DNA of 64,000 nt. It comes from an uncultured Methanoregulaceae archaeon (GTDB lineage Archaea > Halobacteriota > Methanomicrobia > Methanomicrobiales > Methanospirillaceae). Below are positions 447-62,360 of this stretch, in pieces (the first letter of the stretch is position 1; each line of letters starts with the position of its first letter). Location: NCBI GenBank assembly GCA_963705255.1, contig OY970061.1, positions 1,600,001 to 1,664,000 of the forward strand. Direction: 5' to 3'. Both the position numbers and the translations under genes were made by a program. Under the pieces are notes generated by a model, which ran no database searches, was not told the origin of the DNA, and saw only the letters and a program-made list of their open reading frames with translations.

Positions 447-520
447 TGGGCCCGCTGAGATTCGAACTCAGGACCTCCGCCATGTCAAGGCGACGTCATA
501 GCCAACTAGACCACGAGCCC
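447..520 (-). tRNA. tRNA-Val(GAC)
   Basis: Reverse complement GGGCTCGTGGTCTAGTTGGCTATGACGTCGCCTT-GAC-ATGGCGGAGGTCCTGAGTTCGAATCTCAGCGGGCCCA folds as a cloverleaf; AT-rich TATA-like box at about 556-566. Confidence 0.96.
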
Positions 521-669: not shown

Positions 670-984
670 ATGACCGACGGAACACCAACGCAAAAACAGC
701 TCTTCCTGTTCGAACACGATGCAGGCCGCCTCGAACTGCTCATCCGTATCGTCTACTGGATCCTCATAGGCATCGTCCTCGGGGTCTACGGGATCATCGC
801 GTTCATCGTCCTGTTCATCCAGTGGTTCCATGTCCTGATCCTCGGAAAGCGTAGCCAGGCGCTCTCTGATTTCGCAAAAGGCTACCTTGAATACATGGTA
901 CACGTGCTGCCGTACACGTACATCATGACTGACAAGCGGCCGGACATCCTGCCGGTACCGGTGAAGATACTCGAAGAACGCTGA
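670..984 (+). CDS. Small membrane protein, DUF4389-like
   Basis: RLELLIRIVY..hydrophobic segment..QWFHVLILGKR..Y..MTDKRP pattern typical of the family. Confidence 0.8.
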   Translation: MTDGTPTQKQLFLFEHDAGRLELLIRIVYWILIGIVLGVYGIIAFIVLFIQWFHVLILGKRSQALSDFAKGYLEYMVHVLPYTYIMTDKRPDILPVPVKILEER

Positions 985-985
985 T

Positions 986-1036
986 GCGTTCTTCTCGTCC
1001 TCGGGGTCTGATGACCCCTCGGAATTCGAAGAAGCG
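986..1036. repeat. Long imperfect hairpin downstream of DUF4389-like gene, related to the GAAGAA/TTCTTC hairpin family
   Basis: cgttcttc..tcc..ggggtc-tgat-gacccc..gga..gaagaagcg; T-tract at 1073-1082. Confidence 0.55.
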
Positions 1037-1244
1037 TAGACACGAGACTGCTGCTGGCCGTTGCTGGCCGGCTTTCTTTTTTCTGTCTGGCTGCAGGGAC
1101 CTGTACCACCCCTACTGCACGAAATCTCTTGGCAATTTTTCGATTGGGCCCTGCTTAAAAATTCAATCAAGGTTTGATGATCCGGATCACATTTTTAATC
1201 GTAATATGATCGCGATAAAAAATTTCAGTCAGGGTTCGATTAAA

Positions 1245-1510
1245 GATCTGATCCGCTCTTGGGGACTGCGCCCCCACCACTCAGGTACAGCGAAGACCTT
1301 TCAGCGTCTTCTCGACACTGCCACAGTCTGCTGCGACAATGGCAGTATTCCCCCCATGGGGAGAGTGCAGTATTACCTGTCATATGGCTTATCAAGTGTC
1401 TTCTCCTATGGGGTATTAATCGGTGAGGCCCTGAAACCGCACTCAAGCCCGAAGGGTCTGGGCTCACAAATGCGGCAGGGGTGCTTGCCCACCCTGCCAC
1501 GCGGAGATGT
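1245..1510 (-). ncRNA. Candidate structured non-coding RNA of unknown family
   Basis: Between convergent genes; terminal stem, several internal hairpins, cUUCGg and GAAA loops on the minus strand, TTTAAATA box upstream, T-rich tract downstream; no credible ORF. Confidence 0.55.
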
Positions 1511-1564
1511 TGAGAATTATCCTCCCCGAGGTTATCTGAAAATATTTAAAAAAAAAGAGTATTC

Positions 1565-3169
1565 TCAGATCAGTTCACTCGATATCTTGGCAAACGTTGC
1601 GGTGAAGATGCCGGGCATTCCGCGGATCTCCTCCATCACTGCTGCGGGGACCTCGCTGTCCACGTTCAGGACCATGATCGCCTGTTCGCCGGGGTTGATC
1701 CGCCCGACCTGCATGCCCGCGATGTTGATGTTGCACTTCCCGAGGATGGTCGAAGCCCTGCCGATGACCCCCGGCTTGTCGAGGTGGCGGGAGACGATGA
1801 CATACCCTTCTGGGATCATGTCCATGGTGTAGCCGCCGACCGCAACGATTCTGCTTCGGCCCTTGAAAAAGACGGTCCCGCTGACGGACTCGCCGCCCTT
1901 GTCGGTCTTGATCTTTATCGTGATCAGGTTCCTGAACCCTTTTGCCTCCTGCGTGACAGTCTCGCTGACCGCGATTCCCCGCTCCCGTGCGATGAACTCT
2001 GCGTTCACGATATTGACCGGCTCCTGGAGGATCGGGTCGAGGAGCCCCTTGAGGGCGAGCCGTGTTACGAACTTCATGCTGCCGGCATAGGCCGACAGGT
2101 CCCCGCCGTAGATGCACTCTACGGAAGAGAGGCGCCCGCCGGCAGTCTGGATGGCAAACCTGCCCATCTTCTCGGCAAGCTGGGCGTAGGGCTCGAGCAC
2201 TTCCGCCTGCTCCGGCGGGACCATGGGTGCATTGACGACATACTTCGCCGACCCGCCCCTGAGCACCTCGATGCACTGCTTTGCAACGGAGACTGCGACA
2301 TTCAGCTGTGCCTCGACCGTACTCGCACCAAGGTGTGGCGTGACGATGACCTGGTCGAGCGAGAGGAGCGGGGACTCGAGCGGGGGCTCCTCCTCGAAGA
2401 CATCGAGGGCTGCCCCGGCTACCTTGCCGCACTTGATAGCGTCATAGAGCGCCTTCTCGTCGATGATGCCGCCGCGGGCGCAGTTGATGATCCGGACGCC
2501 GTCTTTCATCGTGGCAATGCTCTTCGCGTTGATCACGTGCCGGGTCTCCGCGATCAGGGGAGTATGGACGGTGATGATGTCGGCGACTTTGAAGAGGTCT
2601 TCCATGGACATCATCTCGACGCCGAGCTGTGCCGCCCGCTCCTTCGTGATGAAGGGGTCGTAGGCCACGCACTTCATGTCCAGTGCGTTCGCCCGCTTTG
2701 CCACCTCGCGGCCGATACGCCCGAAACCGACGATGCCCAGCGTCTTTTCGTTGAGCTCCACGCCCATGAACTTCGAGCGCTTCCACTCCTTCTTCTTCAG
2801 GCTCGCGTTCGCCTGCGGGATGTTGCGGGCGAGCGCCTGCATCATCGCCATCGTGTGCTCGGTTGCCGCAAGGGTGTTGCCCTCCGGCGCGTTGGCAACG
2901 AGGATGCCTTTCCGCGTTGCCGCGTCCACGTCGATGTTGTCGACCCCGACACCCGCACGGCCGATGAACCTGAGATTTCTCCCCGCCTCTATCACTTTCG
3001 CGGTGACTTCCGTGCCGCTCCGCACGAGCAGGGCGTCGTAGTCCCCGAGGATCCTGCAGAGCTCGTCCTCGGAAAGGCCCGTCATGACATCAACGTCGCA
3101 CGCCGCCCTGAGGATCGCAAGCCCTTCTTCCGCCAGCGGGTCGCTGACGAGCACCTTTGCCTTTGCCAT
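1565..3169 (-). CDS. serA: D-3-phosphoglycerate dehydrogenase
   Basis: GRAGVGVDNID, GFGRIG, INCARGG, TPHLGAST motifs; C-terminal ASB and ACT domains; 534 aa. Confidence 0.97.
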   Translation of the reverse strand: MAKAKVLVSDPLAEEGLAILRAACDVDVMTGLSEDELCRILGDYDALLVRSGTEVTAKVIEAGRNLRFIGRAGVGVDNIDVDAATRKGILVANAPEGNTLAATEHTMAMMQALARNIPQANASLKKKEWKRSKFMGVELNEKTLGIVGFGRIGREVAKRANALDMKCVAYDPFITKERAAQLGVEMMSMEDLFKVADIITVHTPLIAETRHVINAKSIATMKDGVRIINCARGGIIDEKALYDAIKCGKVAGAALDVFEEEPPLESPLLSLDQVIVTPHLGASTVEAQLNVAVSVAKQCIEVLRGGSAKYVVNAPMVPPEQAEVLEPYAQLAEKMGRFAIQTAGGRLSSVECIYGGDLSAYAGSMKFVTRLALKGLLDPILQEPVNIVNAEFIARERGIAVSETVTQEAKGFRNLITIKIKTDKGGESVSGTVFFKGRSRIVAVGGYTMDMIPEGYVIVSRHLDKPGVIGRASTILGKCNINIAGMQVGRINPGEQAIMVLNVDSEVPAAVMEEIRGMPGIFTATFAKISSELI

Positions 3170-8800: not shown

Positions 8801-8957
8801 CCCGGCCCCGCAGCACCAGGAATATGGTTGCCAGGCTTGCGACCGGGTTCAGCGGATATACCGGCGCACCGGATATAGTTGCTCTGTAGAAAACCTATTT
8901 TATCGTGTGATTCGCTTATATTCTTTGACGGTTATGAGCGTGACCCCCTCTCTCAGG

Positions 8958-8983
8958 TCGAAGAATTCGTCAGAATTCTTCGA
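8958..8983. repeat. Perfect palindrome of the GAAGAAT..ATTCTTCG hairpin family
   Basis: tcgaagaattc-gtca-gaattcttcga. Confidence 0.7.
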
Positions 8984-9261
8984 ACAGCAGTCTCCTCCAA
9001 GAGCGTCAATTATGAAAACCGATGATTTCTCCAGAGCAGATATATTTTACCAGATAAACCAGGAAATGAAAGCACAGGGCCCGTATCAGCTCCGGACAGG
9101 TGGAACGAGAGGGAGAGGCAGTTTCTGCACGGTGCTGCCGGTTGAAACGTCCGATGATTCTTTCCGGTTCGGGGAAAACGCCCGTTTCACAGTGTGGATG
9201 GCTCCCGGATGAGAACAATACGCTTATATCAGCGGATAAAAAAATACTATCCGGGTATGTT

Positions 9262-22442: not shown

Positions 22443-22565
22443 TGATAGCAGCTTGGTATGCTTCCCGGGGACTCGCGTACCTCGATACAACATACTACGT
22501 GTGCCGGCTTAACTGCTGGGTTCGGAATGAGACCAGGTGTGTCCCGACAGCTATGGCCGCTATCA
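22443..22565 (-). rRNA. rrf: 5S rRNA
   Basis: GCGGCCATAGC..CATTCCGAACCCAGCAGTTAAG..; ends complementary. Confidence 0.93.
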
Positions 22566-22584
22566 CCACATGTTTGCTTTTAGA

Positions 22585-22678
22585 TGCTGGTTCTGAACGA
22601 AGAGCGATCGCATCATCTCCGAAGTCGAAGAATCGCAGGCGATTCTTCTCCTCGTCGATGTGTTGACACACATCTCCG
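22585..22678 (-). repeat. Hairpin cassette (GAGAAGAATCGC..GCGATTCTTCGAC) in tRNA-Cys/5S spacer
   Basis: Stems at 22627-22648 and 22657-22674 (GTCA loop on minus strand). Confidence 0.7.
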
Positions 22679-22680
22679 AA

Positions 22681-22752
22681 AGCCAAGGTCCGGATTTGAA
22701 CCGGAGTGTAGTTGATCTGCAGTCAACCGCGTGGCCGCTCCGCCACCTTGGC
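22681..22752 (-). tRNA. tRNA-Cys(GCA)
   Basis: GCCAAGGTGGCGGAGCGGCCACGCGGTTGACT-GCA-GATCAACTACACTCCGGTTCAAATCCGGACCTTGGCT. Confidence 0.96.
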
Positions 22753-22792
22753 GACCGTGTAGGATGATACCCTATCCTCTATGTCAGGATAC

Positions 22793-22804
22793 GATATAAG
22801 GTTT
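22793..22804 (-). promoter_or_regulatory. Putative internal BRE/TATA promoter for tRNA-Cys-5S
   Basis: Minus strand AAACCTTATATC about 40 nt upstream of the tRNA-Cys 5' end. Confidence 0.5.
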
Positions 22805-22835
22805 GCACTCAGAATTTCGTCTGGGTTTAACGTGG

Positions 22836-25757
<2,922 letters not shown>

Positions 25758-25870
25758 GCTCCGCTAAACCCATTTAACGTCCTGAGTGCACCTTTACACG
25801 ACCTCGCAAAGTCATTGGTTTGACTCTCAGCCCTTCCCTCGTGATTCGCATCCCGAGGTGCATCTAAACC

Positions 25871-25922
25871 GGCCCACCGGGATTCGAACCCGTCCTCGTT
25901 CACCCCAGGAGGTGATTGAGCC
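25871..25922 (-). pseudogene. Degenerate tRNA-like element at the tRNA-Ala position of the 16S-23S spacer
   Basis: GGCTCA..TGGGCC acceptor-like stem and CGGG-TTCGAAT-CCCG T-arm; no D or anticodon arm. Confidence 0.7.
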
Positions 25923-25992
25923 TTTTTCATGTCGACACCGGCAATTTTACAGTTTGTCCAGTAACCGCTTTTAACCCGAAATCAAATTCGTT

Positions 25993-27460
<1,468 letters not shown>

Positions 27461-45740: not shown

Positions 45741-45869
45741 GGTCTTCTTACGGTTTTGTGGCGCGGGTTCTCCTCAGGGGGATCCAGGATTCCCTGGTTT
45801 TTCTGATTCGCTTGAAACACACATGAAAGGATCGAGTTCCCCCGGAACCTTAAAAATCGTTCAGTTATG

Positions 45870-45975
45870 AGGGCTCCCGCCTCAGGGCCTCTCCGAGGAG
45901 TCAATCGTCGCGTAAGCGAGGATTGACTGGAGAAGAATCCGCAAGGATTCTTCGACTTGCTTCATCCTGTGCGGA
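45870..45975 (+). repeat. Multi-hairpin cassette of the GAAGAAT..ATTCTTCG family
   Basis: AGTCAATC..GTAA..GATTGACT, GAAGAATCC-GCAA-GGATTCTTC (45932-45953), CATCC..GGATG. Confidence 0.75.
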
Positions 45976-46022
45976 TGCAGCAAAGGAAGTTTGAAAAATA
46001 ACTTGCAGAATCTCATGAAAGA

Positions 46023-62097: not shown

Positions 62098-62360
62098 TGC
62101 AATTTCGGGACTTGAGCCAGTATCATGGCGAAATTGCCGGAGATTTTACAAAAATTGCCAGGTCCGGATCTGCCAATAAAAATAATTCCCGGATCTGTTT
62201 GGGGGGAATTTTTAAAAAATTGCTGACTTCCGAAAAAAAATAACGTGCCCTACGCGCGAAACGCTTTGTCGGGTTTTGCGCTAACTCCAGAGTTGTCTGT
62301 TGTTTTTTGCAGGCATTTCCTGATCCCCAAACAGGTAATACGGCATCATCGTAATGCGCA

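Follow-up and report, generated by a model that had tools for sequence, protein, structure and literature searches.

A structured element between convergent genes in a Methanoregula genome is probably the fossil of a hairpin-rich transposon

Behind serA in the Methanoregula genome studied here (G000), a 580-nt gap separates that gene from a convergent DUF4389 gene, and within this gap, 3' of both genes, lies an element packed with helices. A first-pass annotation of the window (the whole stretch of DNA analyzed, 64,000 nucleotides long) had read this element as an orphan structured RNA, either an undescribed large archaeal ncRNA with its own TATA box or the protein-less relic of an RNA-guided mobile element. 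Does such dense pairing mark an RNA gene, or does it have another source? We approached this question by comparing the element with the rest of its own genome and with a set of 108 genomes of the genus, relatives being denoted by G-numbers. The features discussed are collected in Table 1.

Table 1. Coordinates of the element, its parts and other features of the window
Feature	Position	Strand	Basis or remark
tRNA-Val	447-520	(-)	left end of window
DUF4389 gene	670-984	(+)	
Hairpin modules of the repeat family fused to the DUF4389 gene end	951..1052	both strands matched	sub-family model
Possible remnant of type C right terminal repeat, GGGCCCAATCGAAAAATTGCC, weak	1131..1151	(-)	by eye
AT-rich imperfect palindrome around ATCGCGATCATATTACGAT, a separate repeat abutting the element	1180..1257		BLAST, fold
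Element as first delimited: decayed hairpin-core repeat copy without terminal repeats	1245..1510	(-)	fold, G025 orthologue, family-model matches
End pairing, ATCTCCGC with GCGGATCAGAT	1501-1508 with 1246-1257	(-)	
Family hallmark at the 3' end: GGGGGC-GCA-GTCCCC hairpin and AAGAGCG	1254..1275	(-)	pattern, type C model
GGGGGC-GCA-GTCCCC hairpin	1261-1275	(-)	
CAGGTA/TACCTG helix	1282-1379	(-)	
Hairpin modules CGAGAAGAC..GTCTTCGC (1290-1314) and CTGCC..GGCAG (1318-1345)	1290..1345	(-)	
GACACT/AGTGTC pairing	1314-1319 and 1395-1400	(-)	
Segment GACAGGTAATACTGCACTCTCCCCATGGGGGGA: conserved CAGGUAAUAC loop and 3' strand of the long core hairpin	1349..1381	(-)	
5' half: two GC hairpins (1474-1498, 1437-1475) and tail	1392..1506	(-)	only in G000 and G025
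CCGCA/TGCGG helix enclosing a C(UUCG)G hairpin	1437-1475	(-)	
GGCAGGG/CCCTGCC helix	1474-1498	(-)	
T9 run (1548-1556) and TTTAAATA (1543-1550) immediately behind the serA stop codon	1538..1559	(-)	
D-3-phosphoglycerate dehydrogenase gene (serA)	1565-3169	(-)	
Intact 159-nt family member, terminal repeats TGCTCTGTAGAAAACCT .. ATGATTTCTCCAGAGCA, one hairpin module, ..CCTCCAAGAGCG mark	8880-9038	(+)	
rRNA operon, complete (16S, 23S, 5S), ordinary	22443-27460	(-)	Rfam
Second tRNA, between the 23S and 5S genes	22681-22752	(-)	Rfam

The helices named in the first-pass annotation were all found at their assigned coordinates on the minus strand, and the TATA-like box and the T-tract also lie where it had placed them. 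The minimum-free-energy fold of 1240-1520(-) reaches -110.7 kcal/mol (z -2.91; 1 of 200 shuffles as good) and recovers most of these helices, compared with a z of -1.26 for the plus strand of the same interval, for which 21 of 200 shuffles did as well. One structural detail needs correction, in that the supposed GAAA loop is a loop of 8 nt, GCUGAAAG, and no tetraloop. Rfam, which includes the IscB-associated HEARO family, was searched as the annotation had proposed, and no known family (RNase P, SRP, HEARO or the rest) reaches threshold: the Rfam 15 covariance models at gathering thresholds gave no match in 1245-1510 and marked only rRNAs and two tRNAs in the whole window, while a permissive scan of 950-1650 returned five weak matches at chance level, all far under their gathering scores, the best of them (26.1 bits against a threshold of 53.4) on the neighboring AT-rich hairpin. 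Searches of eight syntenic loci found only tRNAs and three sub-threshold C/D-box snoRNA matches, and seven loci of the repeat family described below gave no match. The structure signal of 1245-1510 is therefore real, and no Rfam family accounts for it. The element is also without coding signal: the three ORFs covering the gap have no Pfam match, and the indels that separate it from its counterpart in G025 are not multiples of three and break the frame.

A family of dispersed repeats offers a different source for the helices. Its hallmark, a GGGGGC-loop-GCCCCC hairpin followed by AAGAGCG, was first spotted beside unrelated genes in other genomes, at loci matching the AT-rich hairpin, and the hallmark pattern has 19 matches in G000, compared with 0 and 1 for the reversed control. 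The looser motif CCCC[AG]AG[AT]GCG occurs at 52 sites in G000, 45 of which share flanking similarity that typically runs from about -226 to +40 of the motif, giving about 45 family copies in this genome. A hallmark 13-mer, GCCCCCRAGAGCG, is present in 84 of the 108 genus genomes, copy numbers across the genus running from 0 to 39, with 22 in G000 and 0-2 for control sequences; in fragmented assemblies it often sits at contig ends.

Many copies of this family have the ends of a DNA transposon. Copy alignments show that members of the first kind start with GGCTCTGTTGAAAYCCT and finish with its inverted complement, and the corresponding terminal repeat, GGCTCTGTTGAAATCCT, forms 28 pairs in the genome, spaced 159-578 nt apart. 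The 8-bp flanks of these 28 pairs agree at 8/8 positions in seven cases, at 7/8 in eight and at 6/8 in six, and an offset control never exceeded 5/8. The second terminal repeat, GGTGATTATCAATAATC(A/C)GCCCC (type C), bounds 13 elements of 273-412 nt, seven of which have identical 8-bp flanks; elements of this second kind occur in 67 of the 108 genomes at E <= 1e-8, and a search of G000 for their terminal repeat found one left end at <=5 mismatches. Target duplications of both kinds are AT-rich and 8 bp long. It is mildly interesting that both kinds of terminal repeat frame one shared, structured core, a GC-rich segment of ~123 nt with several hairpins that starts with CCCCTCTTGCGCC, contains the conserved loop CAGGUAAUAC and finishes with GGGGGC-loop-GCCCCC-AAGAGCG. 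Interiors vary among copies by whole hairpin modules, e.g. CGAAGAACGCTGATGCGTTCTTCTC, which as GAAGAAC-N4-12-GTTCTTC has 88 occurrences in G000 and none in the control, and extra palindromic modules are often inserted in the core. Intact family members are thus MITEs, that is, non-autonomous, gene-less DDE transposons, and their terminal inverted repeats and 8-bp duplications imply cut-and-paste movement by a DDE transposase acting in trans. Strong folding is a trait of the whole family: a canonical copy of 253 nt folds at -121.6 kcal/mol (z -5.97), and three family cores have z of -2.6, -2.5 and -1.3. We found no paper naming this hairpin-core family, which seems undescribed in the literature searched; the supplementary MITE catalogues of PMC11602168 might list Methanoregula MITEs.

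The window itself carries several pieces of this family. An intact copy at 8880-9038 is matched by the all-copy model at E 6e-14 and 1.8e-12, and its flanks, GATATAGT and GATATATT, agree at 7/8 of the 8-bp positions. Where the DUF4389 gene ends, its TGA stop sits in the loop of a GAAGAACGCTGATGCGTTCTTC hairpin, and the sub-family model has two matches there, one to 966-996(+) (E 3.4e-6) and one to 971-1032(-) (E 1.5e-4); relatives have one to five such hairpins at the same gene end. Family fragments at 45867-45977(-) and 62326-62356(+) consist of hairpin modules and a core piece with the CAGGTAATAC motif.

The element between serA and the DUF4389 gene belongs with these copies. Far from being an orphan, as had been supposed, it is homologous over its 3' part (1250-1381) to the dispersed multi-copy family in both nhmmer and profile-model searches. 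An alignment of the type C model to 1224-1287(-), with an E of 3e-7, takes in the hallmark, and positions 142-174 of the same model align co-linearly to 1349-1381(-) at E 0.0018, with two inserted hairpins filling the space between the two matches. Long MITE copies also contain the modules of these hairpins (1290-1345), in unchanged order, and a whole-window search with the sub-family model matches 1277-1364(-) at E 2e-6. When the element was compared with G000 by nhmmer, five further matches appeared (E 1.4e-4 to 0.035), all within MITE copies that share its orientation and its module order: an ACTATC..GGGGG segment, a CTGCC..GGCAG hairpin, a GAGAAGA..TCTTCGC hairpin and then the hallmark. 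The family consensus places CAGGUA in the conserved loop CAGGUAAUAC, and the CAGGTA/TACCTG helix is therefore probably incidental as judged from this alignment. The window copy had looked orphan because a BLAST comparison of hallmark sites that share flanks gave it no partner in G000 at E <= 1e-5; the best BLAST match of the element in that genome (E 0.0016 at 1880757-1880789) later proved to be a family copy. The tie to the family comes from profile methods, with modest individual nhmmer E-values, and membership rests on internal homology over ~130 of the 266 nt.

The ends of the window copy are lost, so that no target-site duplication can be defined for it, and no terminal repeat of either kind is detectable there. 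A possible trace of a right end at 1131-1151 resembles the right ends ..GGGGCTGATATTTTACAATCACC and ..GGCGGATGTTTTTCAATTGCC by eye, has no model match and is not significant alone; between serA and 1506, the search for a left arm or terminal repeat gave only weak by-eye resemblances. The copy is a decayed derivative and not an intact MITE, and we infer that it is immobile and without dedicated function. Taken together, these observations make it likely that 1245-1510 is a fossil copy of a Methanoregula-wide non-autonomous DNA transposon family and no RNA gene. The family's palindromic modules would account for its many helices, which are no evidence of an RNA gene.

The distribution of the element among relatives fits such a history. 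We compared 30 stretches downstream of serA from genomes of the genus. The convergent DUF4389 gene follows at no more than 1.5 kb in 15 of them, and at these 15 loci the two genes are separated by 46 to 1231 nt. BLAST over the 108 genomes found one real homologue, in the sister species G025, where the neighbors are the same (serA, gap, DUF4389) and identity is 89% over window positions 1395-1501; outside this interval the G025 copy can be aligned with many indels. The full element is thus found in G000 and G025 only, and G115 retains a stub, the last ~55 nt, directly after the serA stop. These three observations, full copies in two genomes, a stub in a third and a gap of variable length, indicate that the gap is hypervariable and the element an insertion specific to this lineage. 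As judged by eye, a 5' end of family type, GCCCCCCTCTCGCC, persists in the G025 orthologue, together with a module that also occurs in genome copy 855322. On this view the common ancestor of G000 and G025 would have acquired the element in the variable gap that follows serA. Recognizable terminal repeats would then have been lost from it and hairpin modules gained or swapped; the AT-rich repeat would have come to abut it, and a deletion would have left G115 with only the final ~55 nt. The structure signal, though real, has in all likelihood an ordinary cause, a transposon fossil that was already in place behind serA when G000 and G025 diverged.

Other small elements occupy the same place in relatives. 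Another inverted-repeat element, with ends like GGGGGGTCGGACGGTGTACTTT, lies in this gap at L043 (G025), L071 (G115), L054 and L057, and the gap behind serA seems to be a hot spot for small mobile elements. At L047, L048 and L064 (G129, G089 and G005), other GC-rich structured segments lie behind serA in the same orientation, with GGACAGTGCCTGTCC hairpins and a GGGGG..CCCCC-AAGTGCG end, and the type C model picks up the L064 segment with an E of 1.9e-4, which suggests an old or repeated occupation of the serA-downstream site by the hairpin-core family.

The 5' half of the element (1392-1506) is the part that the family models do not reach, and it has no nhmmer match in G000. It is also the best-conserved part between G000 and G025, at 88.8% identity compared with 83.1% for serA at third codon positions (93.7% for serA overall), an excess that is not significant (P about 0.07, one-sided binomial test). 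When the two sequences were made into a covariance model and the 108 genomes searched with it, G000 and G025 alone were recovered apart from G004, whose E of 0.027 is at chance level; a scan of contig records for homologues of this half returned G025 only, and metagenome scans with two of its conserved stretches gave 0 and 0 matches. Double changes affect 1 of its 29 pairs in these two sequences, and 6 of 53 pairs over the whole element between G000 and G025, too few sequences for a covariation test. Homologues and covariation in relatives, which the first-pass annotation had expected of an RNA, did not turn up for the 5' half beyond the G025 copy, whereas the 3' part has its homologues in the family. 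By eye, the 5' half parallels the family core, with a C-rich start (GCCCCCCTCTCGCC in G025), a hairpin and then GCAUUUG.GA. It is presumably lineage-specific module content of the same insertion, and it may have an origin or function of its own.

Could the element, or its 5' half, nevertheless be a lineage-specific ncRNA gene, perhaps exapted from transposon debris and yielding a minus-strand RNA of ~270 nt from the box at 1543-1550? The stronger fold of the minus strand (z -2.91 vs -1.26), the position of TTTAAATA ~30-35 nt upstream with a T6 tract downstream, the slight excess of identity over serA third positions and a closing CCGC/GCGG pairing that is kept in G025 would all suit such a gene. 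Against this, only two species among the 108 genomes carry it by BLAST and covariance model, G115 has deleted all but its last ~55 nt, the excess of conservation fails significance, double changes between the two sequences are limited to one of the 29 pairs of the 5' half, and the 3' half is repeat-derived. The promoter fares no better, since TTTAAATA lies inside a T-rich stretch directly following the serA stop, and in G025 ~140 nt of unrelated sequence separate that stop from the element, with no A/T box at promoter distance. The serA stop and its T-run are common to relatives; their spacing to the element is not. We therefore read the T9 run and TTTAAATA as probably the oligo-T terminator of serA rather than a promoter of the element, on the assumption that archaeal oligo-T termination operates here. 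With a single full homologue, a promoter that is not kept, no conservation above synonymous sites and a repeat for its 3' half, the element makes a poor candidate for an undescribed large archaeal ncRNA, and we regard an independent ncRNA gene as quite unlikely.

A subtler proposal moves the function from the window copy to the family, whose core would be a structured nucleic acid working on the MITEs, as a multi-locus RNA or as an ssDNA structure needed for spread, with the window copy as a decayed instance. The same ~123-nt core is found in two MITE families with unrelated terminal repeats, and in 17 cores from different genomes the unpaired CAGGUAAUAC loop and the AAGAGCG tail are near-invariant, which is compatible with either recent spread or a sequence-specific role. 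On the sense strand, a manual count of cells in predicted pairs gave ~29 G-U to 9 A-C, a biased excess given that the copies are related and that this strand is the one used for structure prediction. The same 17 cores yield a consensus of 33 pairs of which only 3 show a double change, so that covariation is almost nil (covariation term +0.43); conservation of sequence may reflect recent amplification, the seven family loci have no Rfam match, and copies occur in both orientations with respect to the gene upstream. On this balance a functional core of this sort is very unlikely. The broader proposition, that the core is a functional strand-specific module (RNA or ssDNA) and that the serA-linked 5' half could be an exapted derivative transcribed from the A/T box, is unlikely; were it true, two different transposon vehicles would have taken up and disseminated one and the same core.

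It is highly improbable that the element serves the two convergent genes as a structured 3' UTR or as a terminator or insulator, stopping read-through or stabilizing their mRNAs. Its position between convergent genes would suit that role, as would the family hairpin modules fused to the DUF4389 stop codon in the window and in relatives, but a T9 run directly after the serA stop already precedes the element, relatives have gaps of 46-142 nt without it, and its content differs widely among them.

Least credible of all is that the element is a relic omega RNA scaffold, or the end of an IS200/IS605-type element (TnpB or IscB) whose protein gene was lost: its size, dense structure and intergenic position do resemble omega RNA scaffolds, and G000 has five matches to the TnpB zinc-ribbon family PF07282, two of them above cut-off, but none of the five lies within 3 kb of a family copy, a search of G000 for core 5' and 3' ends spaced at 1-3 kb gave no pair that could frame an ORF, Rfam with its HEARO family gave no match, and the hairpin-core family has terminal inverted repeats and 8-bp duplications, both of which, to our knowledge, IS200/IS605 elements lack. 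Of the idea of a protein-less relic of an RNA-guided mobile element, the mobile-element relic is thus upheld, and the RNA-guided type gives way to the terminal repeats, the 8-bp duplications and the lack of a nearby TnpB. The likeness that the family does bear to TnpB/IscB omega RNAs and to PATE-type archaeal derivatives of IS200/IS605 lies in being protein-less, structured, 150-300 nt long, dispersed and intergenic; it differs from them in its terminal repeats and duplications, its lack of a tnpB link and the absence of an Rfam match.

Among known systems, the transposon family that we take the window copy to derive from resembles prokaryotic MITEs derived from DDE insertion sequences, in particular those with IS6-family ends. 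In the review PMC7986276, IS6 ends have GG tips, cTGTt and caaa motifs, repeats of 15-20 bp and 8-bp direct repeats, and two IS6-derived MITEs are mentioned, of 227 and 336 bp. The elements of the family are likewise short, without coding content and present in many copies, with inverted repeats at their termini and direct target repeats of 8 bp, and the first terminal repeat, GGCTCTGTTGAAATCCT, shares the GG tip and CTGTT, with GAAA in place of caaa. It differs in having an unrelated second terminal repeat and an unusually large GC-hairpin mosaic interior, and in the window copy that has no ends. Elements of the ISL3 group in Methanomicrobiales share with the first-kind MITE the GGCTCT start and the length of the duplication, and diverge from it beyond the first six bases of the repeat; the ends of the ISL3 copies in G039 read GGCTCTTCGCTAAATCCT.., with AT-rich duplications of 8 bp, and Methanoregula ISL3 ends start with GGCTCTTC... 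The bacterial REP/BIME and Correia/NEMIS repeats are likewise intergenic GC-rich palindromes that form variable mosaics with strong folds, often behind genes, whereas intact members of the hairpin-core family have 8-bp duplications and terminal repeats of DDE type. RAYT tyrosine transposases mobilize REPs, which are not known to make target duplications.

A transposase with matching terminal repeats was not found among the ISL3 and IS6/IS240 candidates. As a partner, ISL3 (PF01610) was rejected with no member in G000, members in 8 of the 108 genus genomes, which are not the repeat-rich ones, and ends that differ. IS6/IS240 (PF13610) was set aside as well, its ORFs in the genus being ~390-400 aa long and without the MITE repeats. 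Two 396-aa ORFs with a weak IS240 (IS6-type) DDE domain lie outside the window at C1:2148010-2148438 and 2153556-2153981 of G000; they share 78% DNA identity over the ORF only, have no terminal repeats, and are similar to ORFs in 19 of the 108 genomes including G000. One pair of first terminal repeats 1317 bp apart encloses what translation suggests is a DNA methyltransferase gene, an arrangement taken as coincidence.

Our results carry a caution for the annotation of archaeal genomes: GC-rich hairpin-mosaic transposon debris in intergenic gaps imitates a novel ncRNA in its fold statistics, its tetraloops, its closing helices and even its chance promoter-like boxes, and it takes profile searches of the genome, not BLAST alone, to expose it. 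The hairpin-core family breaks assemblies at contig ends and makes gaps behind genes such as serA hypervariable, and these two effects, together with a copy number of 0-39 per genome, make it useful for tracing Methanoregula genome evolution.

Finally, the AT-rich palindrome that abuts the element (1180-1257; fold -21.7 kcal/mol) is a repeat in its own right. BLAST matches to its sequence occur in many genus genomes, including four each in G031 and G032, and it is multi-copy in relatives, within arrays of units like CAGACYTTGATTGAAAA. In the relatives, palindromes of the ATCGCGATCATGATCGCGAT type form arrays of ~30-nt units such as TTTCAGGCAGACTTTGATTGAAAA, several per genome and often just behind genes (loci L003-L011, L013, L015, L022, L023, L027 and L030). 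The array units resemble the first MITE terminal repeat, and solo ends, protein-binding iterons or another repeat are candidates for what they represent.
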